From a virus (lineage: Duplodnaviria > Caudoviricetes): a DNA stretch of 52,571 nt. Every line of letters begins with the position of its first letter. Positions within the stretch are counted from its first letter, which is position 1. The stretch is taken from the IMG/VR virus record IMGVR_UViG_3300050133_000102, positions 1 through 52,571 of that record; one strand, written 5' to 3'. The notes under the pieces were generated by a model. The model was not told where the DNA came from. It did no database searches and saw only the letters and a list, made by a program, of their open reading frames with translations. The translations under genes and the position numbers were made by a program. Below, piece after piece: positions 3,267 through 28,081 of this stretch.

Positions 3267-4834
3267 TATTCCTTATACTGCACATCTGGTATTGTGCTTT
3301 TCCCGGGAACATCAAATTCCTTGGGATCAACGATGCACAGTTGCCTTTTAATTATTGCTCGCATTTCCTTTGCAGGGTTTAAGCAATATTTGATAAACTC
3401 ATCTGGCGCAATGTCTTCTTTGTGTTGGGCATTCGGGTATAATAGCTTAACAAAGGCGGTACAAAGCCTTTTTATTGCCGTCATATCACGCGTATCTGCC
3501 TTTGGAGGCACATCGATACAGGCATCGACGAGCGCTGCATATGAAAGCTCGTCGCGCATAGCGTGGAGAACCTCTGCAAAGTATTCGGTATTAATTGCCC
3601 ATCCGTTTGCAATCAAGTCTTGATTTAAGCGGGGAATTTTCCATCCGGGGATAAAGCCGTGAAATCTATCCAGAGTGGCAGATTCGCCAAAGACCTCGCT
3701 GATGTTTTCAACCATGTTCTGATTGATGTCAAATTTACCGGCGTCAATATTTCCAAGGACGATTACACCAGCATCCGTAGCCATCTGTGCGTCAAAGCCC
3801 TTTATCTCGCCAAACTCCATATAGTGTTTCAGCGCCTGCTGGATTTGCCCCGGCTGATCAAAAGTAATCGACTGTACTTCATCAAATCCGACATAATCGA
3901 ATCTGGTTAAAAGACCGCCTACTTTTTTCGCATTGTCATAAATCAACGTTGCGCGGGAAACCGTGCCGCCACTAATCAGCCAACCGCGTTTACTGATTTT
4001 TTCGTATATATAGCTCTTTCCCGTTCCTTTAGGTGCAAGTTCGATGAGATTGATTCTTTTCTCTACAAAAGGTAACAACCTTCTTAGGAAGAACAGCTTC
4101 GGTTCCTCACTAATTTCACCCGTTTCTGAGTCGACATATCCTGCTGGGTTATAGTCCACAGCAGAAATGATTACATCAATCCATTCGTGAATATCAAAGT
4201 TTTTCCTCGCTTCTTTATAAAAATTGAGGTCAACTCTGTATGGGCAAAACGGTTTGTACCCGCTTAGGTATATTTCGTTGGGCTTGTAACTGGGTTTGTC
4301 GTCCTCTTCCTCATTATGCTTAGACGATTTCCCGAACAGCTTATCATAGAATTTTGTCGGAGCGTGAGAGCCGTTATTAAAGTCGTCATCAAGGCTAAGC
4401 GTGCTTCCGAGGGCTAATTCAATGATTCCCCAGTTCTCGCTTTCTTTCAGCAACACATCGGCATATTGCTCTAATACTTCATCTGAGACTATGCCGGAAG
4501 CGCCGCCACGGGCACCTCCGAAATCTGGGAGTTCAAATTGAACGACGCTTTTTTTCAAGTTCACTTCCAGACGCACTCGGGCAAGCAGCTTTTCTGTGCT
4601 GCCCTGCATAAGACGGTATTTAATCACCTGATATGCATCTCGGTCGGGAATGAACTTTTTGATATAAGATAGCGTTCCATCATAGTCAATGTTCCCCTGA
4701 TTGTCAGAGAACTTCATTACAAGCCAATCACGCATATATGAAGGCAGACTCAGATTAGAAAAGAACTCAGACCGTTTAGGCTCTTTGAGAACAACCATAT
4801 CCGAGAATACCTGTTTTACTTTTTCTTCAAGCAT
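3266..4834 (-). CDS. brxL: BrxL-like AAA+/MCM-type ATPase, no Lon protease domain (522 aa)
   Basis: RRLLPFVE-RINLIELAPKGTGKS (Walker A), VGFDEVQ (Walker B), LDRFHGFIPGWKIPR, DTRD; start placed at ATG 4834 after AAGGAGG. Confidence 0.85.
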   Translation of the reverse strand: MLEEKVKQVFSDMVVLKEPKRSEFFSNLSLPSYMRDWLVMKFSDNQGNIDYDGTLSYIKKFIPDRDAYQVIKYRLMQGSTEKLLARVRLEVNLKKSVVQFELPDFGGARGGASGIVSDEVLEQYADVLLKESENWGIIELALGSTLSLDDDFNNGSHAPTKFYDKLFGKSSKHNEEEDDKPSYKPNEIYLSGYKPFCPYRVDLNFYKEARKNFDIHEWIDVIISAVDYNPAGYVDSETGEISEEPKLFFLRRLLPFVEKRINLIELAPKGTGKSYIYEKISKRGWLISGGTVSRATLIYDNAKKVGGLLTRFDYVGFDEVQSITFDQPGQIQQALKHYMEFGEIKGFDAQMATDAGVIVLGNIDAGKFDINQNMVENISEVFGESATLDRFHGFIPGWKIPRLNQDLIANGWAINTEYFAEVLHAMRDELSYAALVDACIDVPPKADTRDMTAIKRLCTAFVKLLYPNAQHKEDIAPDEFIKYCLNPAKEMRAIIKRQLCIVDPKEFDVPGKSTIPDVQYKE

Positions 4835-4847
4835 TTTGCTACCTCCT

Positions 4848-5051
4848 TCAGATAAATAATGTACACCCTTGCTCTTTAAATTCATCAATTTTGATTTTCA
4901 AGTCTGCAACGTCGCAGCTGAATGACTCGCTCATACATTCCAGACATTGAAACTTCTGAACATCAGGTGAGATCAATTTCTTATTGAGCGCAACTTCGTC
5001 CTTTGTCAACAGCCTGCCGCAGTCTCGACATTTTTTAGCTTGTGGTTTCAT
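4848..5051 (-). CDS. Small zinc-finger protein (CxxC...CxxC, C-terminal GCxLF)
   Basis: CRDC...DEVALNKKL...FQCLEC...EFKEQGCTLF; GGAG RBS; fills the gap between pglZ and brxL. Confidence 0.8.
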   Translation of the reverse strand: MKPQAKKCRDCGRLLTKDEVALNKKLISPDVQKFQCLECMSESFSCDVADLKIKIDEFKEQGCTLFI

Positions 5052-5059
5052 AATAGCTC

Positions 5060-7408: not shown

Positions 7409-7428
7409 GGATATGCCTCCTTCCGCTA

Positions 7429-10400
7429 TTAGTCCTCATCAAGAAGGAACAGACAAGCTTCTGCACTCGAATCAAGTAGCTTAATCAGTTTAGCTCTCAA
7501 CTGTTCTTCTGTCATTTTTGCTGCCTTTTTCTTGGCATTACCACTCACTTCGTCTCTAAGCCCTATCGTGATGAATTGCTCGGTGATTTTTCTAATGGCA
7601 ACAACAGAGTTATTCCACGATGAATAATCCCTGTATCCGCTGTCCTGAATCTTTATTTTGAGCTCATCAATATGCGGTAAAAGGAGATTATAGTATTTCT
7701 CCGATGCAACATTTACGATGAAACATCTGTCGATTTCATTTTTATCCTTCAAAACGGCAAAATCTGTTTCTGTGATAGAACTCAAAGCATTTTCCAATCG
7801 AATGGAATCAATTCGCTCGTTGCGACTGAGCGCAGAAACCACAGAGAAAATAAATGTGCAATTGGGCATTACCCAAGCAACGGGCATCATGTATGTTTGC
7901 GCCCATTCTGCAACGCCTGCTGTGTCTGTCTTTGCCAGCCAAATGGCAAGCAGAGAATTCGCCTGCTTTGTGTATGCTAAATCGTTGATTTTATTGAGGA
8001 TTGCGGTCTTGAAACTGTGTTCTGTTTGGGAGTATGGCTCTTTCTGCAACGCTTTAAGGATATCGCTGCATTCTGCGTCTGAAAATGTGCCCATCCCATT
8101 TTTTGCGATATACGCTTTCAAAACATTCATTGGATGTGAGATATTTTCAATGGCATCCTTTGTGTACAGCTCCAATTCGCTGATGATTGCGGCCTTTTCT
8201 TCGCTCGAATATCCAATCCACTTGCCACTTGCGATATTATGTAAAGTAGCAACAGTCTTTGCCCAGTTATCAGGAAGACCGGCATACACGCAGCCCGGGA
8301 CACGAATATAGTCCAGATAATTCGACAGGGTTTCTTTGATTTTTTCTACGGATTCTGCCGTTCCATTAAGGGCAGAATTCACTACACCTACGAGCGTAAG
8401 GTCGATAGTCAGTTTTGCTGTTGCTTCAGCAACCTCACTTTCGCGCCATTGCCACTTTTCTTCTTCAAGAGCTTTGCTGAGCATGTTGAACAGCGTGTCT
8501 ATCGAGAAATTATATTTTTTACAGGCATTCTCTGCATCTGGAGCGGTTTTAAAAACAAAATTTTTCATGCCATTGGCGAGTTTTGACCTACCTTTAAACA
8601 GACCCGTAAATAGAGGCACGTACGCTTTTGCGCTAACTTTTACAAGGCTGACTATGTCTTCCATGACGGCTGTTTGGCTGCCAATCTCCAGAATGTATTC
8701 AACGTACTTATCCACGATTTCGCAGATTTCTGTTTTTATACCCGCGTAATCCATATCCTCAAGATATTTTAAAGCCCAGAATGGATAGCCGTTCTTTGTA
8801 ATGTGGATTTTTACATTTTTGCGGCAATCGTAAACGTCACCAATTTCTTCTGGGGTAAGTGCGAAAATTCTCCGTGTGATGTCTTTGAAGCGTTTCTCAA
8901 TATCGCTTTCGCTGGAGAGTTTCATGCCAGCGGATTTGCCGGAGAGCATGCTGACGACCATCGTCGGAATCGTATCTTCATCCAGCTTGTGCGCATTGTT
9001 GCCGTCATACCATGTAAATTTTCCAACATAGAAATGGAATGCAAAACCGAGAAGGTAGCAACACACACTGGTATCGTAGTAACCGAGTTTCTGCTGCATA
9101 TCGTCCCACAGGTCGGTGAGCAGCAATGTGCCGGAAGTTAATGCCTTATTGAGATATGTACACAACGAAGCCATGCTGCGACCGACCTTCGTTTCGGTCA
9201 TAGCCATGATATCTTCAATGGTTCCACAATCCCAGACGTTTTCATCATTATCGCGGAGAACATCAACGCAGTCCTGCCACTGCTGATTGAAATTCTTTTG
9301 CTTGTCATTTGCTGCGCTCTTGGTTTCAAGGGTGGTCTTAGACACACCATAGTAAGCCGGTGCCATAGCCGGTGACTTATAAAGCGTAATTTTACGAATG
9401 ATATTTTCAGGTGCCGCAGGGAAAAACCTGAAAACAATCTTTTCATAATTCGAGATAACATTTTTGTTTGTATAAACGTGCGCAGGCGTATCTCCATATA
9501 GAAGGTCCATATCTTTGCCAATAGCAGTGCTGACCCAGTTGCCGACAAGGTCAACAGCCTGAGTCTGATAGGAGTTCGCATTTACGGTATTTCCGGCTCT
9601 TTGTGCGAGGGAACCGTTGGCAACCAGCTCATACCAGCTCTGGAATATTTCCTCTGGCAAAGGATATCTCATCACGGTAACAAGAACACGATGTGTTTCA
9701 TCGTCCGCAATTAATCCAGAAATGGTCGTTTTAATCTTATCGCTTTCTTCGACAGATGGTACTGCCACAATCAGTAAGCCGAACTTATGGTGCGTTTTTT
9801 CTACGGCTTTTTTCAACTCCCCGAATTTGAAGTTGAGTTGCTGCGTTGTTCCCCAACAGGTATCAATAATCAGGCGCTTGACAACAGCTTTTTCATCCGG
9901 TACGAATTGCTTTTTTAGAATTGAGCCGAAACAAGAGTCCGTACCGAGCAGTTTTGCGGGTGAATTGTCCTTTTTGACTTTTTCAATTTCTGCATCAAGC
10001 TCTCCACCGGTGCTGGAATACGGAAGCTCGATTCTCGAACCCTCATGGAGGTCGGGTGCCAAAACAAGAACATTCAGAGGATCGGAGCTGAGCGAATGCA
10101 GGTAGCTTTTCACTGAATCCTTGTCCATTATGCCGGAAAAACAGTCGCAGAGGGTTTTCTCAGTTACTTGGATTCCCTTGCTGCCTCTGGTTTTCTTCAA
10201 GCTATGCCCTGTACCAATGGTGGCAAGCAATAGCATTGCAGCTTTAAAAACGCGAAGCGCACGGTCGTCGCTGATGAGATTTTTAACCTTGCTGTAGTGC
10301 TTGAGAGCATCCTCGGCGGTTTTAGTCAGGTCTTTTTTACCGCCAAGATTGTTTACGAAGAAGTAATCCCACAAGTAGTCAGGGGTTACCCATTTCCAGT

Positions 10401-11655
10401 CATACTGTCCATTGTTATGAATATAAGCACGGAAACCGTCCTCACCGCTACTCTTTAAGAATTCAAAAATACTTCTGTTGGACGCGGCAAGTCCAGCGAC
10501 CATAGAAACAAGATTAACCGTCATCGGGTGGATGGGGAATATTTTCTTAAGCGTGTTAGCATCCATGTCAGAGTCAGGGTCACCCATGTATGAATGCACA
10601 CTACCGCTAATAGATGAATAGAGGTCTTCGCAAATATCCTCCCAGTTGCCCTTCATCCCGTCTTTGGTGATGATGCTCTCACCGATAAGTTTGAAAGTCG
10701 TTTTTTTGCTTAAGGACACATCAATCTTATGGAAGCGGGCATCGGCTTTTCCGAGAGAGCCATTCACACTCTCGGAAAACAGGCCGGGATACTCGTGCAT
10801 AACATAAATAATAAAGAACGGCAGCTCTTTGGAGAAGATAGATAATTGCTGTATTATGTCGAGGTCATTATTCCGAATATACTCGGTAAACTCATCCCAG
10901 ATAATAAATATCCCTGATTTCGATAATTCCTCATTACCTGAGTAGACATCTTTTAGCCACGCTTTGAATGTTTCGAGGTCGGTTGCCAGACCGATGTTCA
11001 TCGACTGCAGGATTTCCTGGGCGCTGGAACAAGCCGTAATATCACCATCTTGGACAGCGTCATAGAAACTGTCAAACGTATCATATGTGCTCCAATGTTC
11101 AGGATACTCGCCGTTTTCAAAATCCTGTACCAGCTTCGGTCGAAAGTCCTTAACAGTGCTACGAACCGAGTCGACCAGAGAATTTCGACCTGTATAAGAG
11201 AAACCATTCTCTTTCAGAATATCCCGAACTGACTGTTCGATCTGAAAAAGGAATTTGTTGGAGGTATTAAGCTGCTTGCTTTCACCGCTGCGGAACTTCA
11301 CATAATAGCGAGCTTTTTTCCGGGCGGCGAGAAACTTGTCCTTCACATCGAGGAACAGCTTATTCTTATTCAAAAAGTTTTCCACGATGCCGTAGTCATC
11401 CTGCAGAAAGTGCTTAATGACAATAGCAGAGTAGGTCTTACCTGTACCATAAGAGCCCTTAATCCAGTAATGCCACACATCTTCGTTGGGGTCATCGGGG
11501 CGCAGGGAGCTGGCAAGCAGTTTTACTGCGGTCACCATGTCGTCATTAACAATATAGCGACTCCAGAAATCCGCATTTCTGCTATCGGAGCTGATATCTA
11601 CCACAGACTCATATCCGGGCGTCAATTCTATGAAGGAATCATATTTGTTTGCCAT
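7429..11655 (-). CDS. brxC: Large P-loop ATPase, BrxC/PglY/SspC family (1408 aa)
   Basis: GSYGTGKT Walker A, IIWDEF Walker B, FPIHP, SNRSIFEF; lies between brxP and pglZ; start placed at ATG 11655. Confidence 0.82.
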   Translation of the reverse strand: MANKYDSFIELTPGYESVVDISSDSRNADFWSRYIVNDDMVTAVKLLASSLRPDDPNEDVWHYWIKGSYGTGKTYSAIVIKHFLQDDYGIVENFLNKNKLFLDVKDKFLAARKKARYYVKFRSGESKQLNTSNKFLFQIEQSVRDILKENGFSYTGRNSLVDSVRSTVKDFRPKLVQDFENGEYPEHWSTYDTFDSFYDAVQDGDITACSSAQEILQSMNIGLATDLETFKAWLKDVYSGNEELSKSGIFIIWDEFTEYIRNNDLDIIQQLSIFSKELPFFIIYVMHEYPGLFSESVNGSLGKADARFHKIDVSLSKKTTFKLIGESIITKDGMKGNWEDICEDLYSSISGSVHSYMGDPDSDMDANTLKKIFPIHPMTVNLVSMVAGLAASNRSIFEFLKSSGEDGFRAYIHNNGQYDWKWVTPDYLWDYFFVNNLGGKKDLTKTAEDALKHYSKVKNLISDDRALRVFKAAMLLLATIGTGHSLKKTRGSKGIQVTEKTLCDCFSGIMDKDSVKSYLHSLSSDPLNVLVLAPDLHEGSRIELPYSSTGGELDAEIEKVKKDNSPAKLLGTDSCFGSILKKQFVPDEKAVVKRLIIDTCWGTTQQLNFKFGELKKAVEKTHHKFGLLIVAVPSVEESDKIKTTISGLIADDETHRVLVTVMRYPLPEEIFQSWYELVANGSLAQRAGNTVNANSYQTQAVDLVGNWVSTAIGKDMDLLYGDTPAHVYTNKNVISNYEKIVFRFFPAAPENIIRKITLYKSPAMAPAYYGVSKTTLETKSAANDKQKNFNQQWQDCVDVLRDNDENVWDCGTIEDIMAMTETKVGRSMASLCTYLNKALTSGTLLLTDLWDDMQQKLGYYDTSVCCYLLGFAFHFYVGKFTWYDGNNAHKLDEDTIPTMVVSMLSGKSAGMKLSSESDIEKRFKDITRRIFALTPEEIGDVYDCRKNVKIHITKNGYPFWALKYLEDMDYAGIKTEICEIVDKYVEYILEIGSQTAVMEDIVSLVKVSAKAYVPLFTGLFKGRSKLANGMKNFVFKTAPDAENACKKYNFSIDTLFNMLSKALEEEKWQWRESEVAEATAKLTIDLTLVGVVNSALNGTAESVEKIKETLSNYLDYIRVPGCVYAGLPDNWAKTVATLHNIASGKWIGYSSEEKAAIISELELYTKDAIENISHPMNVLKAYIAKNGMGTFSDAECSDILKALQKEPYSQTEHSFKTAILNKINDLAYTKQANSLLAIWLAKTDTAGVAEWAQTYMMPVAWVMPNCTFIFSVVSALSRNERIDSIRLENALSSITETDFAVLKDKNEIDRCFIVNVASEKYYNLLLPHIDELKIKIQDSGYRDYSSWNNSVVAIRKITEQFITIGLRDEVSGNAKKKAAKMTEEQLRAKLIKLLDSSAEACLFLLDED

Positions 11656-11656
11656 T

Positions 11657-14011
11657 TCAATTACCCCCCAGTACGATATTAACGACATCCAGTGAGTTCT
11701 TCTCGCTATTCAGTGTTATATTATCGAGGTCAGCAACAAATGCGATTTTGATGAAATCGGGATAGTCATTTGCAAGCTGACGTACCATCTCCTTGAACGC
11801 GTCCTCGTCCAAAGCAAAAATCGTGACAGGGTCCATACCGACGAAATTCTCCGGGCGGTTGTCGCGGATGTTCTTTAGCTCCTTCAGCGTAATGTTAAAG
11901 TGTCCGCCAAGCTTCTCCGCGTATCGATACATCGCATAGAGGATGGCAGTGCCATCAGGCGTAGACCAGCCTTTTTTTGTGAAGCGATATGAGTTGCCAC
12001 TCGGAATCGGTACGCCCATTTCTAATGTCGAACCTATAGGGCTATTAACAAAGGTTTCGGCCAATGAAGTAATGGCATTATTCCGTGTAGAAGCGGAATA
12101 AATATCATCAATCATTTCCACAAGCTCCGCCTTTGTGTAGGTTTCATCATTTGGCACATTAAGCAGATACCATTTTACCAGCGTGGAATTATAAGCTAAA
12201 TTAGTCCATATCACAGCCCATGTAAATGGGTGAAATGGGCCTATTTCTATCAATTTTTCACCAAGAGCGGTAATTTGACCATTCTTTCCATTTGATGTGC
12301 CAACTTCGATTACTTCGCTCTCTTTTAGATAGACCTTAAGCGCATCATATTGGCGATTGCCGTATTCCTTCGAACTCCAGCAATCGTTACCTTGCTCGAA
12401 GAAATGTTCAAGCCAAGCTCCCCTTAATCCAAAGTGTTGATACCTATTCATACCCTTAAGGTCCATGTTGCTACCTCCTTGTGTTGTGGACAATGAACGT
12501 GCTACTTTGCATCCTTTTGCAACTTCCGTGATACATTTTCCACAATGAACACATTTTTCGCTTATTATTGAGATTTTTCGATTTTCATCTATGGTAAACG
12601 CCCCTGTCGGACATTCCACAGAACAACTATTGCAGCCAATACAATAGGCGGCCTTATTTGCTAAACCACGTAACCAACTTATGGTGAATCTGTCCATACT
12701 GCTGAAGCCGGAATATGTTACCGTTGAATTATCTTCACCTACTTCAAAATTGTAGGTTTTATCCTTAATAATCTGTTTCCCGGAGTTTTGATTACGTTCG
12801 ACAATTGGACCTATTATTCTTCCGACCTCTATCCAAGGCTGTCTAATTTCACTAAAGACAAATTGCAAGGTATCATCTTGAATTATCTCGTGTACGCGGT
12901 TACCTCCATTTTTTAATCCGCGTCCTCCGAACCGACCTTTCCAACCACCTTGGGCAACGTACTTTTTTACTTCTTTTTCAGGCTTGTTATCGGCAGCATA
13001 TTCTTCAACTCGTGCCAAGAATGGTGCCAAATCATCTTTATATGCGATATTTGCAATTCCATCCCACCAAGCTGATGACATTGGACACACAGCACAACCG
13101 ACTCGGAATAGGCCTAATCTGTATGCATTATTGAACAGAATATCACGCTCCAAGATATACAAATATATCTCAGATGTACTCCATTTCAAAATGGGGCTGC
13201 AATTAATCTGATTAATATGTTTCTTTCCTTCGGACAATTCTGTATAGGTTGAACGCTGCTCACTTTCTTCGGCACGAACGCCATCAAAAACCACGGCTTT
13301 GATATTTTCGCCTTCGGATATTTTTTGCAAAAGTACAAGTGTCGGCACTGATTTGTGTACACCGCAGCACCAGCGAAGTCTTCTCCCCGGAGGACCGAAT
13401 TCGCTCCACGATTCCTTCGCGTCAAACTCCGATTTTGCGGTTTGAAAATTTAGATTCGGATAATGTTTTTTTGCTTTTTCGACCGCTTGGTATGTATCGC
13501 GAAGTTCCATCCCCGTATCTCCAAAGACCACAAGGAATTGGTCTGGTACCAAGGCTCTTTGAACGATATCAAGAATAACAATGGAATCTTTGCCACCGCT
13601 ATATGCAGCAACAAACTTATAGCCCTTTGTAGCATATTCATCGTATGTTGCTCGAATAAATTGAACAGTTCTTTGTACAAGCCCCTCCATGATGGAAGCA
13701 TTTGTTTTTATAAGCTTATCAACATCAATCGGCTCCAACTTTTTAATTTCGGTGTTCTTAATTACGATTTTCGGCTTTTCATAAAAGCTGCCGCCCTTGG
13801 CTTCCGCAATCACCTCGCCGTTTAACACATATTTCCGAATACCCTCTGCCCACAGTAGCGGCGCTTTGGTATCGGGATATTCCCAGACCTTATACATTTC
13901 GAAGAAGTCCAGTTCTTCCTTGAAAACAGGTCTTATTTCTTTTTGAACGGTTACGGAAACATCGAGCTTGAAAATGCCGTTTTCTCCGTCCACCCATCTA
14001 TATCCATACAT
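11657..14011 (-). CDS. brxP: BrxP: PAPS-reductase (DndC/SspD-like) domain + ferredoxin-type Fe-S domain + C-terminal DUF4007-like domain
   Basis: SGGKDS PP-loop, RWCC, GVRAEESEQR, RVGCAVCP; CIGCNSCSVECP and CVHCGKC; C-terminal ~270 aa winged-helix-like region. Confidence 0.85.
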   Translation of the reverse strand: MYGYRWVDGENGIFKLDVSVTVQKEIRPVFKEELDFFEMYKVWEYPDTKAPLLWAEGIRKYVLNGEVIAEAKGGSFYEKPKIVIKNTEIKKLEPIDVDKLIKTNASIMEGLVQRTVQFIRATYDEYATKGYKFVAAYSGGKDSIVILDIVQRALVPDQFLVVFGDTGMELRDTYQAVEKAKKHYPNLNFQTAKSEFDAKESWSEFGPPGRRLRWCCGVHKSVPTLVLLQKISEGENIKAVVFDGVRAEESEQRSTYTELSEGKKHINQINCSPILKWSTSEIYLYILERDILFNNAYRLGLFRVGCAVCPMSSAWWDGIANIAYKDDLAPFLARVEEYAADNKPEKEVKKYVAQGGWKGRFGGRGLKNGGNRVHEIIQDDTLQFVFSEIRQPWIEVGRIIGPIVERNQNSGKQIIKDKTYNFEVGEDNSTVTYSGFSSMDRFTISWLRGLANKAAYCIGCNSCSVECPTGAFTIDENRKISIISEKCVHCGKCITEVAKGCKVARSLSTTQGGSNMDLKGMNRYQHFGLRGAWLEHFFEQGNDCWSSKEYGNRQYDALKVYLKESEVIEVGTSNGKNGQITALGEKLIEIGPFHPFTWAVIWTNLAYNSTLVKWYLLNVPNDETYTKAELVEMIDDIYSASTRNNAITSLAETFVNSPIGSTLEMGVPIPSGNSYRFTKKGWSTPDGTAILYAMYRYAEKLGGHFNITLKELKNIRDNRPENFVGMDPVTIFALDEDAFKEMVRQLANDYPDFIKIAFVADLDNITLNSEKNSLDVVNIVLGGN

Positions 14012-14028
14012 AAATCTGCCATCCTTTG

Positions 14029-16590
14029 TTAGTTTATAGTCACCTTACTGTTTTTCTCCGTCCAGTAAAAGCGCAAATCGCCGGCAACAGTCTTATGTAC
14101 ATTCCACATCTTTTCTGAGCCGTGAATTAATCCTTTGTCGAGCAAAAACTCTCTGAATTCTGAAGCGGTTAGTTCTTTTGGAAGCGAAAATGACTTTGAT
14201 ACTTCATTCCAGACCAAATCCGAAAATGTTCTGAATGGAGAATTCTTCTTCAGAATAGCTGCCGGAATGGTCTTTTTGTCGTTGTCATTACCTGCTTCGA
14301 CGGTAATGTATCCAATATCAAAAAGCCGTAACATGTCTTCCAGAAAAAGAGGCGACCATTGAATATTGGTCGGTACAGCCGGAAGCGTCGTGTAGAAATA
14401 GTCTGCAATTTCGCCGAAAGCGATATAGGCTTCGCCTTCAAGCAGGTTCTCTATTTGAACCCTGAGAGCGCTCAGGAAATTATCGTTCACATAAAGTGCT
14501 TCCTTCAGGGCAAAGCAGTTTTCCGCATACTGAAGGAAGGATTTACTGCCTGAGGTGAACAGAATATTTGAGAATGACTGGTCTGGTGTTGCAGAGCCGA
14601 TTGACTCAAAAAAGGTAAGTGCCTGTTCGCGGGTAAAAATATTCTGATGCTCTCGACCATACTTGATTAACAGGCCGTGAAAGTCTTTCGGATAGTTTGG
14701 CTCGTTCCTCCAGATATGCATACCATTCAGGAACAAGAAAGAATTACCTTTATAATTCTCCTGAGTAAAAAGATGCACCGCGAGGTCAAATACCTCCGGG
14801 CGCGACTCAAACGCATTGTTGTAGAAGAAGAAATCATCCAGCCGAAAATGCGCATCATTATATAGCTGCTGTGCGGATGTGTAATCGCCATTAGCGGCAA
14901 ATTGCTTTGTCAGGACATCAAGAAGAATTCCCGCCATTTCGTCATAATTGCTTATATTATCCTTGTGATAATATTTTTTAAGCGCCTTTACTGCATGACA
15001 TGCCGTCAATGCATGATTGACCTGCGGTGTACTGTAATTTGAAAAGTGCGCAAAAACATCTTTCTCTGATATTCCGTCACTACTGGCTTTCAGGAAAGCA
15101 GACAGTTCATTGGTAAGCCCTGTGGATGCAGTCTCAGTTCTTGGCTCTGCCTTTGCTTTCTCAGGGGTACTAATTGCAGGAAAATCCACTGCGTCAATTC
15201 CATCTGGATAAAGATAGCTAAAGTATTTTACCAGTTTCTGAAACGCAGCGGAAAAGCGATTATGCTGGTCTTGATTAATCTGCCTGAACCCTTCATCTGC
15301 CATTAAACAAGAGACGGTCGACAGCGCTTCTTTGCTGTCAACGCCAGAAATATTTCTGCTGGGAAGATTGTGTTCTCTTGCATGTGATTCTGCCTTGTTT
15401 AGCGCGGAAACATAGCTGCGGCACGTACCATCTGCCATTTTTTCAATGTTTTTCAGCCACTCCGAAAATGTAATATCAGAATTGTTGCCAGACGCAATAT
15501 GCGTTTCTTCCTTTGGCTGCATCTTATCATGAACCCTATCGGAAGGCTTCTTTTCTTGATATTCAATTACAACATTTTCTGAAGAAATGCCACAAATATC
15601 AAGTAATGCTGTAATCTTCTTCACTATGTCGGTGGCGCTGATATTGGTTTCGATATAATAATCATCAATGATTTGTTTCGGCGCAGTCATCCCATCGGCA
15701 GCACCAAAATCCAGCCTGCCGCTTTTGTAAAATGACTGTCCAATCGGAATGATGGCTGTATAATCCGTATAAATGCTTTTGAACAGCTTAACATACAACT
15801 CAGTCCAATTTGAAACTGATTCCTCACGAACCCCGCGATATGTGAACACTACGGGTCTTGTGTATGCGAGAGATGGCATATTCCTGAAATCGATTATCAT
15901 GTTATTGTTTGTTTCTGTGGGAGTTGCGGATGCTACTGGGATTACTTCAGTGGTTTCTTCTGCAGGGGTAATATTGGGCAAATCCATCACAAATGCGTAA
16001 TACCAGTTAGCCGCAGAGATGATATTGTTAATCTGCTTCTTGTTTTTTATCCTGAATATTTTGTTTTGGCTCACCGTTTTGGCAAAGCGCTTGATGGTGC
16101 TTTCATCTGTTGTTTCAAACAACGGGGCAGAAAGGACTTTGATTTTCAGACAAAACTCTTCTGCAACAGGCAAAAATCGGCATAGGAAATCAGGCTGGAC
16201 TTTTGGCGCTTTGACTGCCAGCCACGCACAAAACTGCTGACGAGTTTTTTCTTGAATATCACTCACGCCTTTTGCCTCCATCAATATTTTTTCGTAACCT
16301 TTGTAATCATTTTTGTACAGTTGCACCATCTGCCTGAAAAGGTCAGATGTGTTTTTCAGACCGATACCATCGTCAGAAAATAGATAATCAAGTTCACCCA
16401 GCCGCATGTTGATCCCATTTTCGTTGCGATATGTTTCGTCAATAACTACGCCTCGACTGGACGCCCGTAAGCGCAGCGCTTCAGACAGTGTGGTGAAGAC
16501 AGCCCTTCTCGACAATTTGTTTTCTTTTGTCTTCCAGTACGCTTCAATAAGAAGGGCTGCTTCGTACTGATCCCATTTTGGCTGTCGCAC
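14029..16590 (-). CDS. Large multi-domain hypothetical protein (853 aa), probably DNA-binding, defence-associated
   Basis: Long ORF with GTG start and AAGGTG RBS; two internal helical repeats (FxxWL...SAA..Y/L..F); no catalytic motif recognised. Confidence 0.7.
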   Translation of the reverse strand: MRQPKWDQYEAALLIEAYWKTKENKLSRRAVFTTLSEALRLRASSRGVVIDETYRNENGINMRLGELDYLFSDDGIGLKNTSDLFRQMVQLYKNDYKGYEKILMEAKGVSDIQEKTRQQFCAWLAVKAPKVQPDFLCRFLPVAEEFCLKIKVLSAPLFETTDESTIKRFAKTVSQNKIFRIKNKKQINNIISAANWYYAFVMDLPNITPAEETTEVIPVASATPTETNNNMIIDFRNMPSLAYTRPVVFTYRGVREESVSNWTELYVKLFKSIYTDYTAIIPIGQSFYKSGRLDFGAADGMTAPKQIIDDYYIETNISATDIVKKITALLDICGISSENVVIEYQEKKPSDRVHDKMQPKEETHIASGNNSDITFSEWLKNIEKMADGTCRSYVSALNKAESHAREHNLPSRNISGVDSKEALSTVSCLMADEGFRQINQDQHNRFSAAFQKLVKYFSYLYPDGIDAVDFPAISTPEKAKAEPRTETASTGLTNELSAFLKASSDGISEKDVFAHFSNYSTPQVNHALTACHAVKALKKYYHKDNISNYDEMAGILLDVLTKQFAANGDYTSAQQLYNDAHFRLDDFFFYNNAFESRPEVFDLAVHLFTQENYKGNSFLFLNGMHIWRNEPNYPKDFHGLLIKYGREHQNIFTREQALTFFESIGSATPDQSFSNILFTSGSKSFLQYAENCFALKEALYVNDNFLSALRVQIENLLEGEAYIAFGEIADYFYTTLPAVPTNIQWSPLFLEDMLRLFDIGYITVEAGNDNDKKTIPAAILKKNSPFRTFSDLVWNEVSKSFSLPKELTASEFREFLLDKGLIHGSEKMWNVHKTVAGDLRFYWTEKNSKVTIN

Positions 16591-16636
16591 ATTATCACCT
16601 TCGATTTTACGCTCTCATGTGTACTAAAAAACGGAC

Positions 16637-16870
16637 TTATGTTTCAGCCGGATTATGCTCTGCGTTTCCGTCAGACACAATTTCCATGATATCGCCTATC
16701 TTGCAGTTTAATGCGGTACAAATTTTGAGCAGTATTTCCGTATTTACATTTCCGCCGTTACCGAGCTTGGCAACGGATGTGGCGCTAATGCCACTCATCT
16801 CACGCAGGGTTTTCTTGTTTATTCCTTTGTCAATTAATAATTTCCACAGTTTGTTGTAGCTGAATCGCAT
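16637..16870 (-). CDS. XRE/Cro-C1-type HTH transcriptional regulator
   Basis: SYNKLWKLLIDKG...SGISATSVAKLG...LLKICTALNCKIGDIMEI, a pattern common beside Firmicutes restriction loci; GGAGG RBS. Confidence 0.9.
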   Translation of the reverse strand: MRFSYNKLWKLLIDKGINKKTLREMSGISATSVAKLGNGGNVNTEILLKICTALNCKIGDIMEIVSDGNAEHNPAET

Positions 16871-16889
16871 ACTATACCTCCATTGCTTT

Positions 16890-18554
16890 TTACTGCTCAG
16901 TTACATTGACCTTATTGGTTTTCTTAGCCCACGAATAACCGTAAAGCTCATTACCACCCTCGCTAAGGCGGATTATCGTAGTGCTATCCAATATTTCCTG
17001 AATGCGTTTTGTCGGTGCATCCTGCTTATCATACGCAATGAATATTTGCTTTCCACTCTGAAGATATAACTCCATGATTCTTTCCAACGGCTCATAGCCT
17101 ATGTGATTGAACATTAGCGAATCATGAATGATTGCTGGTAACGGTGTTATCTTCAAAACGCTCAAGTCAAAAACTATCATACTCTTAAACCCTGTTCCCA
17201 TACCGCCATCGTCCGGAGTATAAAAGCTATACTTTGCGCTGCTTTCAAACTGAATGACCGGAGCCATTCTGGTGCCGTTGTAGATATAATCATTAAATCT
17301 AACCATTTGCTCGTTGATTGTCGAGGCAATAAGGTTCAGTACCTCCATTTCAACACCTGACAGAGCTTTTTTCGCTGCCTTGACATCGGCCACCAATGTT
17401 TGTGAGGTTTCGCAAGCCTTATTCTGCGATTTCAGTACGGCTATCCTACGTGTCAAATCGGTGAACTTCTGCAAAAATTTCTGCGGGATAGTAACCGGAA
17501 TCCCAAATTCACGCTGTTGCGCTTGCAAATCCTCGATTTCAGCATTTAATACATCTAACAAAGATTGGAGTCTACCAATTTCCTCCTCCATTTCGTTTTC
17601 CAAAATGCTGTGTATTTGTTGGTGAAACCTTTCAACAGAATCAAGTCTCTGAATGTCGATTTCAGGGAAGAGCTCAGAAAGCTCGCGGTAATCACTGTCA
17701 GTAATTGTAAAACCACTGTTGTTGATTTTTATGGTGTTTTGCTGAGAAATCAACTTACTCCTATTTCGTTTAAATAGTGTAATCCGGCTCTTTATAGCCA
17801 GTACAGTATCTGCGTTATCCATATCTTCCTCGGTCATATTGACATCAAGGGTGTCTGTTAACGCCTGAAGCTCTTCCTCTAATCTTTCAATCTCTCTTTC
17901 GTTATCCATGGCTTGCCGGGCAGTAGGGACATATACCTGAAGGACATCTTCTTTTTTGGCGTCGTTAAAGGCGTCCTTTTTGTCCTCCTTTTTCTTGCTC
18001 TCGCTTTTATACTGCTCAATCTGAGTGTAATAATTAAAAAGTTTTTCTAAAGCTGTAATTGCAGCGGAGGCGCTTTCTTTTGAATCTGCATGCAGCGGAA
18101 GTTTCTCTGAATAATTGTCCTTGCCGTAGATTCGCATGTATCGTCCTACAATATCTCTAAATGTGATCGATGGGAGATCAATCTTATACATTTCAAATAA
18201 ATGCTGACGAAAATCTGCTAATTTGATTGTCTCTATTACACTGTAGTTTTCATTGCATTTATTCACTTCAGTTGGCGTAACAATGCTACGGGAATAGTAT
18301 TCTTTCTTCCCGCCAAAAACAAAAGCAAAACTTACGGTATGCCGTACATCGGCGAATCGAGCTTTTACGTCGGTTCCTGTGTAGTAGGTATCGCCGCCGA
18401 AACAAAAGTCGACAGCAAGTAAAAATGTCGACTTTCCAATAGAATTGTCGGATTGCTTTCCGCCACGTACTGTATTCAGACCGCTGTGAAATATGATACG
18501 GCCGCGTTTGCTACCATTCGATACAAACTCATCACTCATGATTTCGCTCAACAT
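16890..18554 (-). CDS. lmuB: ABC-3C/Lamassu SMC-like ATPase (DUF2326 type)
   Basis: FHSGLN...NSIGKST Walker A, central coiled coil, GGMGTG signature, IIHDS Walker B, KQIFIAYD. Confidence 0.85.
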   Translation of the reverse strand: MLSEIMSDEFVSNGSKRGRIIFHSGLNTVRGGKQSDNSIGKSTFLLAVDFCFGGDTYYTGTDVKARFADVRHTVSFAFVFGGKKEYYSRSIVTPTEVNKCNENYSVIETIKLADFRQHLFEMYKIDLPSITFRDIVGRYMRIYGKDNYSEKLPLHADSKESASAAITALEKLFNYYTQIEQYKSESKKKEDKKDAFNDAKKEDVLQVYVPTARQAMDNEREIERLEEELQALTDTLDVNMTEEDMDNADTVLAIKSRITLFKRNRSKLISQQNTIKINNSGFTITDSDYRELSELFPEIDIQRLDSVERFHQQIHSILENEMEEEIGRLQSLLDVLNAEIEDLQAQQREFGIPVTIPQKFLQKFTDLTRRIAVLKSQNKACETSQTLVADVKAAKKALSGVEMEVLNLIASTINEQMVRFNDYIYNGTRMAPVIQFESSAKYSFYTPDDGGMGTGFKSMIVFDLSVLKITPLPAIIHDSLMFNHIGYEPLERIMELYLQSGKQIFIAYDKQDAPTKRIQEILDSTTIIRLSEGGNELYGYSWAKKTNKVNVTEQ

Positions 18555-18774
18555 ATCTCAACACCTCCGTTTCTTCGTCATAATCTATTTTATTAAGGGC
18601 GTATAGGCAATCTAAAATTTCCATATATTCATTTACTCCGGTAACGTTCCCTTGAACTCTTTTATATAGTTCCGAAACACTGCATGGAGCTTTTTTTAAT
18701 ATCTGTAGAATGCTTGGAAATTTTGATATGATGCTTTCGTTGTATGAAAACAACTTATTCGGCAATAACATCAT
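18532..18774 (-). CDS. lmuC: ABC-3C middle component (LmuC-like)
   Basis: LLPNKLFSYNESIISK...ELY...LDCLYALNKI; overlaps both neighbours. Confidence 0.78.
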   Translation of the reverse strand: MMLLPNKLFSYNESIISKFPSILQILKKAPCSVSELYKRVQGNVTGVNEYMEILDCLYALNKIDYDEETEVLRYVERNHE

Positions 18775-19870
18775 ACACCTCGCACTTCTGGACAAAATAC
18801 GAAACGACTATTTCACATGCCATTCTGTCCTCGTTTGTACTGCTTTGTATCCAGTCAACCAGTTTTTTAAATATCGTTGGTTGAGATAAGTTTTCATTGC
18901 TCAACTTCAGATAGTTTATTTTCACGCTGTTACAGAATGGTCGAAAATGTTGTTTTCCTTCCTGATCCATCTGCTTAAGCCATTGGTCAACTTTACTATA
19001 GTAAGCGGTTACATAACTTTTCACTTTGATAAACAGTGGATTGTAATCGGCCCTGATTTTTTGCCTCACTCTAACCGGGTTATAGTTCAATGGAACCAGT
19101 TCTTCATCAGGAGCAATTAAGATTTTCTCAAGTACTCTTTCAACACCATGCTCGATTTGTTCAGAAGATAGTATTAAGGATTCCACCGCATCCTGCATTA
19201 ACCGCTTTTTTAGTGATTTAAGCCTTGCTTTTGCTTCAGGTAGCTTATTTTGTGTCAGCTTTGCGTAACAGGATGGGCACAGAGCTATTAAGTTATCAAA
19301 AGTCACAGGCTGCGACTCATCGATTCTTAAGACCTCATAACACAATTCGGCCTGGCCATTTATGTCGGACTGCAATGACTGATTACACCAGTCATTGGGG
19401 CAAATACAATTTGTTTCAATAACAAGACTAACGCCAAAAGATCCTTTTAGTCCATCACCAGTATTAATTCTGGTGATGGATTTCTTTTTATCATTAACAG
19501 CCTCAAGCAATATTGACTGAAAGAGCTCTGCTATTTTCTTAGCAACATTGAATGTCGTTATTTCGGGGCAGTAATCCTGAAAGTTACCGCAGATATTGAA
19601 CAACGCTCCTTCTTCAAAAGAATCAATATATGTTTCGAACTTTGTCGTTTCAATGTACTGATTTACTTTTTTCGCCAGCGACCTGATTTTTCGGGTTCCA
19701 TTGAAGTAGCTCTTAAAAGTTGAAACTAATTGCTCGCCAAAAGGATTATCGTCTTCTAATTCTTCAGGGTATTCGATAATTTCGCAGAATAATTCAAGCG
19801 CAAATTTACCGGTAGTCATGCCACCACCGATAATCGGAAAAAGCAAATTTGCAAATTTCTCGAATGTCAT
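18755..19870 (-). CDS. ABC-3C/Lamassu first component (LmuA-like): HTH-like N-terminus + degenerate HNH zinc domain + ABC-3C C-terminal domain
   Basis: C-terminal CEIVVSYFVQKCEVY motif; CPNDWC...NLIALCPSC; first gene of the three-gene module. Confidence 0.75.
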   Translation of the reverse strand: MTFEKFANLLFPIIGGGMTTGKFALELFCEIIEYPEELEDDNPFGEQLVSTFKSYFNGTRKIRSLAKKVNQYIETTKFETYIDSFEEGALFNICGNFQDYCPEITTFNVAKKIAELFQSILLEAVNDKKKSITRINTGDGLKGSFGVSLVIETNCICPNDWCNQSLQSDINGQAELCYEVLRIDESQPVTFDNLIALCPSCYAKLTQNKLPEAKARLKSLKKRLMQDAVESLILSSEQIEHGVERVLEKILIAPDEELVPLNYNPVRVRQKIRADYNPLFIKVKSYVTAYYSKVDQWLKQMDQEGKQHFRPFCNSVKINYLKLSNENLSQPTIFKKLVDWIQSSTNEDRMACEIVVSYFVQKCEVYDVIAE

Positions 19871-20017
19871 CTACGTATCCTCCTCACTTTTTGTACCCAA
19901 CTGTATCCGACTGTGACAGTGCGTAATGCTGTCAAAATTAAAATCTAACTATAATTGTTTTATGTAAGAAGGGCTCGCAATTGGCACTGATAAAAACACC
20001 ACGAGCCACTTTTACAT

Positions 20018-20046
20018 AGTGTACCACGGAATTTCGCAATAATCAA
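20018..20046 (-). promoter_or_regulatory. Sigma-A-type leftward promoter for the defence operon
   Basis: Minus strand TTGATT (20046-20041), 17 bp spacer, TG-n-TACACT (20023-20018). Confidence 0.6.
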
Positions 20047-20099
20047 TATAGTTTTGCGAACGCGAAACAAAATAGTTTCTCACATTCAATGTTTTGCGA

Positions 20100-20320
20100 G
20101 AGCCTGTGAGTGCAAAATCGCCTCGTAGTACATCCGCTGATCACGGATGGCTCAGTGCAACGTGACGAACAACCGAATAATGAACAGCTGACTACTGAAC
20201 AGGAAGCTGCAATCCGAAACGGAGTAATCTGCCAGGACTGCGGTCGGGCTTTTATGCCTGCTTTCCAATCAGCTTCGCAGATTCCTCCGTTTCGAGACAA
20301 CGACAAACGGAGGAAATCAA
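20100..20320 (+). ncRNA. Structured 5' leader / candidate cis-regulatory RNA upstream of the sigma-like gene
   Basis: Three-way junction at 20100-20153; mutually exclusive stems 20215-20232/20277-20294 and 20282-20292/20305-20315 (the latter covers the SD). Confidence 0.5.
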
Positions 20321-20845
20321 ATGAAAAACCAAGCCAATCAAGGACAAGCCAGAGACTACAAAGTCTACCTGCCTCGCCTGAAGAAATGGGTGGAGGTCAC
20401 CAAGGAGCAGTACTACGGCTACTACCGCGACTTATGGGCCACCCGCAAACGCGCTCAGGAGCACGGCCAATGTATGTGTCCCAAAAGCAAACTGTGGCTG
20501 TGCGACGGCGATTGCCTTGCCTGTCAGTATCGTGCCGCTGGCGACACCCCCTCCCTCGACTATACCTACGAGAACGAAAAAGGCGAGGCGTTCTCCATGC
20601 TAGACAAGCTGGAAGATGAATCTGTCAGCATTGAGGAAATTGTCACCGACAAAGCCGTGCTGGAGCAACTGTTTAATCGTCTCGACGAAATTATGCCTGA
20701 AGCCCGCCGCATCGGTGAGCTTCGTCTCGCAGGACTTACCGACACCGAGATAGCAAAAATCATCGGAGTTTCCCGCACCACCTTTCTTTCCCGCCTCAAA
20801 AAAGCCGCCGAATTTTTGAAAGATGAATACAGCGATTTGTTCTAA
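20321..20845 (+). CDS. Phage sigma-70 region 4 / ECF-like regulator
   Basis: C-terminal HTH GLTDTEIAKIIGVSRTTFLSRLKK; Cys cluster CMCP...CDGDCLAC; SLD motif. Confidence 0.8.
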   Translation: MKNQANQGQARDYKVYLPRLKKWVEVTKEQYYGYYRDLWATRKRAQEHGQCMCPKSKLWLCDGDCLACQYRAAGDTPSLDYTYENEKGEAFSMLDKLEDESVSIEEIVTDKAVLEQLFNRLDEIMPEARRIGELRLAGLTDTEIAKIIGVSRTTFLSRLKKAAEFLKDEYSDLF

Positions 20846-20853
20846 TTCCATGC

Positions 20854-20890
20854 CTCCGGTCGGCTTCAAAACCGGCCGGAGAAATTTTTC
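20854..20890 (+). terminator. Hairpin terminator after the sigma-like gene
   Basis: CTCCGGTCGG / CCGGCCGGAG followed by AAATTTTT. Confidence 0.5.
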
Positions 20891-20908
20891 AAAAAACTTT
20901 TAGATTCC

Positions 20909-20947
20909 TTCGTCAAAACGGCCTGCTCACCTCCAGTGGGTAGTGGA
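20909..20947 (+). promoter_or_regulatory. Candidate phage-sigma-dependent promoter, copy 1
   Basis: TTCGTCAAA-N13-CTCCAGTGGGTAGTGGA; same motif and spacing at 25169. Confidence 0.6.
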
Positions 20948-20986
20948 AAGCGACAAAACACAGCTTTCTGAATGGAGGTGAACGGA

Positions 20987-21202
20987 ATGTATAAGACCCA
21001 AGTAAAACCCCAGACCTGCGCTGCGAACGAGGAGCTTATTGATGTCCTCACAGCAATCAGCGTGGTGTCCAAGAGTCTGGCGAGAAAACTTACAATCCTC
21101 GCCGGGCAGCGCCAATCTACGGAAGGAGGAAAATCAGATGAGCAAAATGAGCGATATGGCAATGACCATCGAAAACCTGCGCAAATGCGCTACCACTATT
21201 AA
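20987..21202 (+). CDS. Small conserved phage hypothetical protein
   Basis: GGAGGTG RBS; EELIDVLTAISVVSKSLARKL. Confidence 0.65.
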   Translation: MYKTQVKPQTCAANEELIDVLTAISVVSKSLARKLTILAGQRQSTEGGKSDEQNERYGNDHRKPAQMRYHY

Positions 21203-21455
21203 CGAAGCGGCCAATTGGCTCGCGGAGATGTTCAGCGGCGATGAGTCCGCGCAAGAAGCGAAGCCCACTCCGATCGAACCGGTACTTACGCTGGAAGCGG
21301 TCAGAGCAGTCTTGGCAGAAAAGTCCCGTGCGGGCTATACCGCCCAAATTCGCTCTCTGCTCCAGAAGTACGGTGCCAGTAGGCTGTCGGGTATTGACCC
21401 GGCCAACTACAAGCCCCTGCTTGCAGATGTGGAGGAACTGACTGATGCCACCTAA
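21138..21455 (+). CDS. Conserved phage protein preceding DUF2800
   Basis: AAGGAGG RBS before MSKMSD; LTLEAVRAVLAEKSRAG...LLQKYGA..LS.IDP..Y. Confidence 0.75.
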   Translation: MSKMSDMAMTIENLRKCATTINEAANWLAEMFSGDESAQEAKPTPIEPVLTLEAVRAVLAEKSRAGYTAQIRSLLQKYGASRLSGIDPANYKPLLADVEELTDAT

Positions 21456-22584
21456 AGGACACGCAATCCTCTCCGCATCCTCCTCTGACCGCTGGCTACA
21501 CTGCCCACCGTCTGCTCGGCTAAGTGAAAGCTATGCAGATAAAGGCAGCAACTTTGCAGCCGAAGGCACAGATGCCCACAGCCTCGGCGAGTATAAGCTC
21601 CGCCGGGCGCTGGGTATGGATGAGGAGGACCCGACAGATAACCTTACTTGGTACAACGAGGATATGGAAGATTGTGCCATTGGCTATGCCACCTATGTGC
21701 TTGAACAGGTAGAGGCCGCAAAGCAGACCTGCGCTGACCCGGTAGTCCTGATTGAGCAGCGCGTGGCTTTCTCCCGCTGGGTGGAATCCGGCTTCGGTAC
21801 CGCCGACTGCATCATCATCTCAGATGGTACGCTGAAGATCATCGACTATAAGCATGGACGTGGAATCATGGTTGAGGCCAACGAAAACCCGCAGATGATG
21901 TGCTACGCCCTCGGTTCGCTGGAGCTCTTTGACGACATCTACGACATCAACACCGTAGAAATGACCATCTACCAGCCGCGCAGGGACAATGTCAGCACCT
22001 ACAGCATTTCCAAAGATGACCTGTACCGTTGGGCCGATGAGGTCCTGAAGCCCACGGCTGATCTCGCCTTTGCCGGAGATGGGAACTTCCTCTGCGGCGA
22101 ATGGTGCGGCTTTTGCAAGGCCAAATACGACTGCCGCGCCAGAGCCGAAGCCAATATGAAACTGGCCCGATACGACTTCAAGTTGCCTCCTCTCTTGGAG
22201 GATGATGAAGTCGAAAGTATCCTCGCTCGCGTGGACGACCTTGTGGCATGGGCTTCCGACATCAAGGAATATGCCCTGCAACAGGCTATTAGCGGCAAGG
22301 AGTGGTCCAGCTGGAAGCTGGTCGAAGGCCGCTCCATTCGTAGATACACCAATGAGACGGCGGTTGCCGAGGCTGTCAATACTGCCGGTTTTGACCCATA
22401 TGAACGCAAGGTTCTCGGTGTCACCGCCATGCAGAAGCTGCTCGGCAAATCCCGCTTTGACGAACTCCTTGTGGCCTACATTGAGAAACCGCAAGGCAAA
22501 CCGACGCTCGTGCCGGAGAGCGATAAACGTCCGGCGATGAACACAGCCAAAAATGAATTTATGGAGGAAAACGATTATGAATAA
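21445..22584 (+). CDS. DUF2800 family PD-(D/E)XK (Cas4-like) nuclease
   Basis: HAILSASS..RWLHCPPS, FGTADCII, IIDYKHG, NPQMMCYALG, WCGFCKAK..C. Confidence 0.9.
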   Translation: MPPKGHAILSASSSDRWLHCPPSARLSESYADKGSNFAAEGTDAHSLGEYKLRRALGMDEEDPTDNLTWYNEDMEDCAIGYATYVLEQVEAAKQTCADPVVLIEQRVAFSRWVESGFGTADCIIISDGTLKIIDYKHGRGIMVEANENPQMMCYALGSLELFDDIYDINTVEMTIYQPRRDNVSTYSISKDDLYRWADEVLKPTADLAFAGDGNFLCGEWCGFCKAKYDCRARAEANMKLARYDFKLPPLLEDDEVESILARVDDLVAWASDIKEYALQQAISGKEWSSWKLVEGRSIRRYTNETAVAEAVNTAGFDPYERKVLGVTAMQKLLGKSRFDELLVAYIEKPQGKPTLVPESDKRPAMNTAKNEFMEENDYE

Positions 22585-27940: not shown

Positions 27941-27949
27941 TGGCTATCT

Positions 27950-28048
27950 GGGTTAACCTCGATTAAGGTCATATACAAAAAGTCTCTATAGGACTAAAAA
28001 AATAGTACTAAGAAAAGTTTTAGAAACAACCTTAATAGAGGTTAACCC
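27950..28048. repeat. 20-bp inverted repeat around an AT-rich spacer; candidate replication origin
   Basis: GGGTTAACCTCGATTAAGGT (27950-27969) vs ACCTTAATAGAGGTTAACCC (28029-28048), 19/20 complementary. Confidence 0.65.
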
Positions 28049-28081
28049 ACCCTCTTAAAATCCCTGATGGAGAACGAGAAA

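Follow-up and report, generated by a model that had tools for sequence, protein, structure and literature searches.

Introduction

Riboswitches such as thiM (thiamine pyrophosphate, TPP) and add (adenine) control translation through a sequestor and an anti-sequestor: a strand of the sensor competes with the Shine-Dalgarno (SD) sequence for a single anti-SD strand, and the two mutually exclusive helices are both conserved. Attenuators of the Bacillota (riboswitches, the T-box) use terminators and antiterminators, with a co-transcriptional decision window and a hairpin followed by a U-run. Kinetically controlled riboswitches also exist in the Bacillota. Here we examine the leader of a 174-amino-acid (aa) open reading frame (ORF) in a Caudoviricetes virus (Duplodnaviria; IMG/VR record IMGVR_UViG_3300050133_000102), of which the whole stretch of 52,571 nucleotides was analysed and is hereafter called the window. 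The leader carries a DUF2800 RNA (Rfam RF02960) and an anti-SD strand, B, that can pair either with a segment of this RNA, A, or with the SD region of the ORF. We consider it rather likely that the leader is the SD-sequestor/anti-sequestor expression platform of the DUF2800 RNA.

The DUF2800 motif is reportedly listed as a likely but uncertain cis-regulator, its mechanism being left unexplained. The source of the motif is Weinberg et al. (2017; Nucleic Acids Res 45:10811, PMC5737381), in which a term search of the main text gave no instance of 'DUF2800'. A literature search on DUF2800 RNA and RF02960, phage riboswitch anti-sequestors included, returned no paper on this RNA. Both the RNA family and the kind of platform were already known; what is new, within the literature that we found, is that the two are connected, together with the evidence for the connection.

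The leader resembles the thiM and add riboswitches in that a sensor strand competes with the SD for one anti-SD strand, and in having two exclusive helices that are both conserved. Unlike in those riboswitches, the anti-sequestor helix crosses helices P2 and P3 of the motif, so that it requires either a pseudoknot or the unfolding of most of the sensor; moreover, no aptamer class matches, and the OFF state dominates at equilibrium in nearly all members. With the attenuators of the Bacillota it shares a probable co-transcriptional decision window and, in most relatives, the hairpin with its U-run. It differs from them in that the hairpin holds the SD of the regulated gene, 2-9 nt before the start codon, and in that the window copy has no U-run.

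Results

Segment A (20215-20232, CGAAACGGAGTAATCTGC) agrees with the reverse complement of segment B (20277-20294, GCAGATTCCTCCGTTTCG) at 17 of 18 positions, the sole mismatch being a U opposite a C. The core of B (TTCCTCCGTTT, 20282-20292) is complementary at 11 of 11 positions to AAACGGAGGAA (20305-20315), and GGAGG (20309-20313) lies here, 7 nt ahead of the ATG at 20321-20323. Direct reading of the letters thus confirms both matches as they had been given in the initial annotation of this DNA. Within the 52,571 bases, 18-mers with a complement of at least 17/18 located 20-100 nt downstream occur at two places, the leader and 27949-28049, where our own estimate of the random expectation is about 0.003 such pairs per window. 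The second place is a long hairpin just past the primase/helicase gene.

The Rfam model RF02960 matches 20118-20279 of the + strand (cmscan; 120.2 bits against a gathering score of 60.2, E 1.9e-22). The match covers model positions 1-158, which is all of the 158-position model, and is not truncated; only a few non-standard pairs are flagged relative to the consensus, and beyond RF02960 the next best matches in the Rfam scan of the window have E above 3. According to the Rfam alignment and its structure line, all on the + strand, the motif begins with P1, a long hairpin with an internal loop (20118-20168), followed by the 5' strand of P2 (20185-20191, partner 20269-20275), the 5' strand of P3 (GCUGC, 20206-20210, partner 20240-20244), the conserved junction J3/4 (AAUCCGAA, 20211-20218) and P4, in which ACGGA (20219-20223) pairs with A' (20228-20232). 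Segment A corresponds to model positions 97-115, P4 included, and spans the conserved junction CCGAA together with the P4 5' strand, the P4 loop and the P4 3' strand A'. Since A lies inside RF02960 and has a local partner there, the system has four segments rather than three. The two-way pairing of B proposed in the initial annotation holds, in so far as A:B and B:SD are mutually exclusive and both are conserved with compensatory changes in more than 100 leaders, but the third partner, A', had been overlooked. The published model stops at 20279 and omits B (except for 3 nt), the SD hairpin and the A:B alternative; the B:SD hairpin (20280-20318), which carries the GGAGG in its 3' arm and is seen both in the minimum-energy fold of 20200-20335 and in the covariation, lies outside the model, just 3' of it.

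Related leaders were collected by five pattern scans, one with a pattern in A and the others with patterns in P1, either alone or with GGACUG. The pattern inside A retrieved 52 loci, and the P1-based patterns, which are free of A, B and SD, retrieved 67 viral loci, 33 genome-contig loci, with isolate genomes among them, and at least 117 metagenome rows; the divergent leaders came from patterns that exclude A, B and SD. Of the 120 rows that a 15-base pattern drew from the genome contigs, most were chance matches to unrelated phyla, and a longer pattern was used instead. Nine of the 199 hits that nhmmer gave with our own hidden Markov model in 363 sequences ran into a contig end; the other 190 are full leaders and include 142 distinct ones. 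An SD and a start codon could be assigned in 139 of these 142; L293, L363 and L251 were dropped, and L240, a short atypical variant, was also excluded, so that 138 aligned leaders with 113 distinct rows entered the analysis. Most of the named hosts belong to the Clostridia; a few are Erysipelotrichia or Negativicutes, and two are Bacteroidaceae-labelled bins. Three leaders (L240, L267 and L299) are shortened and carry other sequence in place of the P2 3' region, and L240, from a Bacteroides-labelled bin, shows only a small UACUCCU/AGGAGGA hairpin, with its complementarity to A limited to CUCC.

In this alignment the A:B pairing, taken in the register of the window, has 84.5% of cells paired over its 18 pairs. 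Its 11-pair core reaches 90.9%, with six of the 11 pairs changed on both sides, and slid registers reach at most 53.5%. Two pairs change type throughout: at pair 16/104, 96 rows have A-U and 17 have G-C, and at pair 19/101, 98 rows have C-G and 15 have U-A, with no unpaired row at either. Column 16 sits in J3/4 and has no partner in the Rfam fold. The covariation score of A:B is 0.145 against a shuffle mean of 0.094 and was reached by none of 500 shuffles; this control is not a probability. On a tree built from non-trait columns, each of these two pairs switched at least four times with no unpaired intermediates, but the tree is a quick one, based on about 150 nt, and may overcount switches.

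The competing helices are conserved as well. B:SD is paired in 94.0% of cells, with compensatory changes in eight of 13 pairs. P3 and P4 together are 96.7% paired over the 113 distinct rows (P3 5' strand with its partner, 98.4%; P4 alone, 95.0%), with a change from C-G to U-A at P4 pair 19/35. The leaders fall into five core classes (AAACGG, GAAUGG, GAACGG, AAUCGG and AGACGG) in which A and B change together, the SD side changing too in four of them; the corresponding A/B forms are CGAAACGGAG/CUCCGUUUCG, GGAAUGGAG/CUCCAUUCC, GGAACGG/CCGUUCC, AAUCGG/CCGGUU and AGACGG/CCGUCU. Inside the main core class the SD side is more variable than B. Cognate A:B duplexes have a mean energy of -21.16 kcal/mol against -18.57 kcal/mol for non-cognate ones, an advantage of 2.6 kcal/mol that none of 2000 permutations reached; inside the main core class the advantage amounts to 0.77 kcal/mol (again 0/2000 permutations). 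The covariation check in homologous leaders that had been suggested for this locus therefore shows A:A', A:B and B:SD all retained with compensatory changes, which supports a switch. G-U pairs are frequent (P3 pair 4/52 is G-U in 103 of the 113 rows, P4 pair 21/31 in 27), and hence the structure belongs to the RNA of the + strand. The earlier proposal that the element acts as + strand RNA ahead of the ORF at 20321 is supported.

Either state can come out as the minimum-energy fold, depending on the piece of sequence that is folded. Positions 20200-20335 (136 nt) fold at -43.3 kcal/mol (z -2.78; two of 200 shuffles were as stable) with B:SD and a local hairpin in A. The longer piece for which folding had been suggested, 19960-20340 (381 nt), folds at -113.6 kcal/mol (z -4.88; none of 100 shuffles was as stable) and contains a long A:B helix. 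The window leader proper was folded as a 227-nt piece that starts at P1 and ends 12 nt beyond the first base of the ATG; its energy is -67.4 kcal/mol when A:B is imposed and -64.8 kcal/mol when B:SD is imposed together with P4, with ensemble probabilities of 0.78 and 0.22. The 17/18 A:B match of the window exceeds the family norm of about 10 uninterrupted pairs, and its B:SD duplex has an energy of -19.1 kcal/mol. The window alone favours A:B among the 127 distinct full leaders, only three of which have the two states within 3 kcal/mol of each other. With its extended A:B and without a U-run, the window copy is a bistable exception in the family.

As bare duplexes, A:B and B:SD are of comparable strength, with mean energies of -21.0 and -22.4 kcal/mol (113 rows). 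We rejected the idea that A:B is the more perfect helix of the two: it surpasses B:SD in duplex strength in just 31 of 113 rows. When leaders are made to end after B, A:B has a mean probability of 0.61 and passes 0.5 in 75 of 119 leaders. These values refer to nested folds; ViennaRNA scores no pseudoknot form that would retain P2 and P3.

A U-run of at least five (U5-7) directly follows the G+C-rich stem in 85 of the 113 distinct rows, and it is of four or fewer in 28. It also serves as the spacer between SD and AUG. Where relatives carry it, the window has AAAUCAA, and a terminator scan called none at 20277-20320 in the window; the hairpin of L006 was likewise uncalled. Taken together, the competitiveness of A:B only before the SD strand is made and the U-run in most rows suggest that the family may act co-transcriptionally. 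A stronger equilibrium A:B in leaders without the U-run was considered and rejected (mean gap 13.5 versus 14.7 kcal/mol, p = 0.19).

Discussion

How could the four segments work together? By default the RNA would be OFF: the motif is folded with A paired to A' (P4), and the B:SD hairpin, at about -18 to -26 kcal/mol, would bar 30S subunits, while in most relatives the hairpin and its U-run may also stop transcription. In the ON state B would pair with A, breaking P4 (and in a nested fold P2 and P3 too) and leaving the SD single-stranded. The choice is probably made during transcription, as B emerges before the SD strand and A:B would at that moment be about as stable as the folded motif. ON would result if B captured A ahead of the synthesis of the SD strand, or if A:B were favoured by some factor. 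Stabilisation of the folded motif, be it by a small ligand, a protein or another RNA, would push the system to OFF. The window copy, with its 17/18 A:B match and no U-run, may also act at equilibrium as a purely translational switch. The initial annotation had proposed a post-transcriptional ON/OFF switch. The exclusive, conserved pairings agree with this, but 126 of 127 leaders favour OFF, and the family may decide co-transcriptionally and terminate. As for the trigger, a translating ribosome had been among the candidates, and the alignment speaks against it, as any one frame runs through A without a stop in at most 37 of the 138 leaders.

Several observations weigh against the sequestor/anti-sequestor reading. 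The probability of B:SD exceeds 0.5 in 126 of the 127 distinct full leaders, nested A:B costs a mean of 14.4 kcal/mol over B:SD with P4, and the RNAalifold consensus consists of P3, P4 and B:SD; since the SD-hidden state dominates at equilibrium, ON would have to be transient or factor-dependent. Measured by the longest unbroken run of pairs, B:SD exceeds A:B in 87 of 113 rows. The flanks of A:B, taken alone, covary weakly (80 of 2000 permutations reach the observed value). A recognisable platform is missing in four of the 142 distinct leaders (the L293, L363, L251 and L240 mentioned above), and the leaders, from phage, metagenome and Clostridia contigs, are sequences related to each other. 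Of six RNA runs found, the four mapped to the window cover parts of 20309-21600 and leave the leader uncovered, and we know of no ligand for the DUF2800 RNA. Finally, A and the SD side are alike, so that the A:B match could stem from mimicry rather than pairing, and the nucleotides of B that pair with A all have a possible partner within the hairpin too.

These last points lead to the strongest competitor, in which the B:SD hairpin represses or terminates, A never pairs with B in the cell and the hairpin is opened otherwise, by a protein, a helicase, RNase processing or ribosome standby binding. The A:B match would then be incidental, P4 and the sequestor hairpin forming one and the same duplex on other grounds: both may be bound by one factor, or A may be an SD mimic or standby site. 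The equilibrium folds and the RNAalifold consensus fit this explanation, as do the shared changes of A and the SD side in four of five core classes, which mimicry accounts for as well as pairing does, and the pairing of the 3' part of B inside the hairpin. We nevertheless judge it unlikely. The J3/4 column 16 has a Watson-Crick partner, of one of two types, in B column 104 in every one of the 113 rows; in 12 rows the SD partner of column 104 is unpaired; cognate duplexes exceed non-cognate ones in stability; and A:B and the motif fold are balanced at just the point at which B has been made, which is hard to explain if A:B is irrelevant. That same balance, which exists only co-transcriptionally, as it does in kinetically controlled riboswitches of the Bacillota, could be read differently: the leader might be mainly a transcription attenuator, with B:SD and the U-run as an intrinsic terminator, A:B as the antiterminator and the hiding of the SD as a secondary effect. 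The prevalence of U-runs directly after the stem agrees with such a role. The window itself has AAAUCAA there, no terminator was called in it or in L006, the run is short in 28 of 113 rows and doubles as the SD-to-AUG spacer, and the energy gap is independent of it, so that attenuation as the main function appears improbable.

Two further explanations seem far more remote. The inverted repeats could act as DNA, as an operator or an origin-like site for a dimeric protein, given that they lie in a 450-nt intergenic stretch with other repeated boxes and that the P1 loop is, as DNA, the palindrome TGATCA. The common G-U pairs of P3 and P4 are not complementary in DNA, the pairings covary instead of conserving sequence, a curated covariance model is matched at twice its threshold, and one arm of the repeat is the SD of an ORF; we regard a DNA site as very improbable. 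SD-sequestering hairpins are a hallmark of RNA thermometers, and the B:SD hairpin might act as one by melting with temperature. At a mean of -22.4 kcal/mol the B:SD duplex would be far above known thermometers in stability, and a thermometer has no need for a large multi-stem motif or for a covarying alternative partner. A thermometer is thus the least probable of all these explanations.

The most conserved single-stranded stretch of the DUF2800 RNA is an SD look-alike, which covaries with an anti-SD strand beyond the published model, and this anti-SD strand can in turn hide the SD of a sigma-like regulator. One of many orphan structured RNAs known as a consensus drawing only now has an ON/OFF model that can be tested by mutation, and translation of the first gene could be the read-out in a search for a ligand or factor. 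One tentative extension, which we hold to be possible though on balance doubtful, is that the DUF2800 RNA is a phage riboswitch: P1-P4 would bind a host-derived small molecule, lock A away from B and so read host metabolism for the decision of the sigma-like regulator. Should such a ligand exist, the RNA would represent a widespread class of riboswitches in temperate phages of gut and soil Clostridia. In a bolder variant, two leaders would kiss via the P1 loop (UGAUCA or UGGCCA), and the switch would sense transcript or genome copy number.

Genomic context and regulated gene

The virus record is 77% complete by the CheckV estimate. Positions 1-19870 hold accessory and defence genes on the minus strand, and from 20321 on all large genes lie on the + strand, the leader region being part of the 450-nt intergenic stretch. 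The + strand genes start with the 174-aa helix-turn-helix (HTH) protein (20321-20845, + strand), which is followed by a phrog_408 protein, a DUF2800 exonuclease, a Gp2.5-like single-stranded DNA-binding protein, a DNA polymerase, a primase/helicase and a VRR-NUC protein, then by an SNF2 helicase and a phrog_36 regulator, and finally by terminase, portal, head, tail and endolysin genes. The RNA thus heads the whole rightward train of replication, packaging and lysis genes. PF10926 (DUF2800) is matched with 529.1 bits at 21445-22584, on the same strand and two genes downstream of the leader. Directly upstream and divergent (16890-19870, minus strand) is an ABC-3C defence-type system with an AAA/DUF2326 ATPase, a Middle Component 7 protein and a CTD11 effector-like protein.

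The regulated ORF, delimited from the ORF list and protein profiles, encodes a protein with an HTH similar to regions 3 and 4 of sigma-70 and with a Cys-rich middle. It matches TIGR02937 at profile positions 80-164 of 165 with 34.2 bits, which is below the NCBI cut-off of 42.9, and the Pfam family Sigma70_ECF (extracytoplasmic function) at positions 115-183 of 185 with 21.3 bits against a cut-off of 21.1. Region 2 was looked for and not found: there is no Sigma70_r2 match in Pfam, and TIGR02937 is matched in its C-terminal half only. In a comparison with the PDB, the family profile retrieves sigma region 4 (E 2e-6 to 1e-4) and HTH domains of the NarL/LuxR type. The best PHROG is 13787, whose function is unassigned there. 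An AlphaFold model of the protein has a predicted local distance difference test (pLDDT) score of 82.8 and a predicted template modelling (pTM) score of 0.39; a Foldseek search with it gave no hit at E 0.001 or better, the weak hits being mostly sigma factors. The protein resembles sigma-70 family and ECF sigma factors in its C-terminal region-4 HTH and differs from them in lacking a recognisable region 2 and in scoring below the TIGR02937 cut-off. We therefore describe the product as sigma-like, as predicted from its sequence. The initial annotation had gone further and called the gene a sigma factor and the likely master lytic activator: the region-4-like HTH is there, but only the C-terminal half is matched, below the NCBI cut-off, and neither role follows from these matches.

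The downstream gene is complete in 127 loci, which encode 121 distinct proteins, 112 of them forming one BLAST family with the window protein. In another locus (L339:238-1130), the same leader and SD hairpin stand ahead of a full-length sporulation sigma factor of the SigG/SigF type (NF006071, 431.8 bits), which takes the place of the usual protein of 170 aa. A second class of loci (L006, L002, L013, L003, L227 and L255) has the RNA directly after an upstream ORF with the conserved C-terminus ...FSELYAIEADL; in this class the leader is, as far as gene order can tell, internal to an operon rather than a 5' untranslated region. Two ORFs that overlap the leader in the window look spurious, namely one of 169 aa across A (20110..20619, + strand), with a frame that is open in at most 37 of the 138 leaders, and one of 87 aa on the minus strand (20043-20306).

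A promoter scan of 19871-20117 found none. Between the divergent gene and P1 (20031-20100) there are several TTGCGAA- or TTTCGCAA-like boxes (TTTCGCAA, TTTTGCGAACGCGAAA and TTTTGCGAG), which could be operators. In one class of loci (L011, L049, L054, L055, L233 and others), the same boxes are preceded by a -10-like TATTATA upstream of the RNA, and this element is degenerate in the window. Upstream of the boxes, 19960-20019 forms a long hairpin of about 20 pairs, similar to one in related loci that ends in ...CGAGCCGCUUUUA; this hairpin may be a terminator insulating the leader. Immediately downstream of the 174-aa gene, at 20854-20881, lies a terminator-like hairpin (10 pairs, eight of them G-C) with a U-rich tail, and the 174-aa gene may therefore be a transcription unit apart from the replication genes.

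Within the motif, the apical loop of P1 (20127-20133) carries the palindrome UGAUCA, and the 3' internal loop of P1 reads GGCUCAG. Two of the 45 A-anchored leaders have UGGCCA in the apical loop, in which a double change keeps the palindrome, and one has UGGCCU, in which it is lost; a few members break the palindrome. Such variation would fit a loop-loop dimerisation. The internal loop sequence GCUCA(G) (20139-20145) is complementary to UGA(A/G)C of the P2-P3 junction (20194-20200). A possible pseudoknot would thus join P1 internal loop GCUCA to J2/3 UGAGC by five near-invariant pairs with no real covariation.

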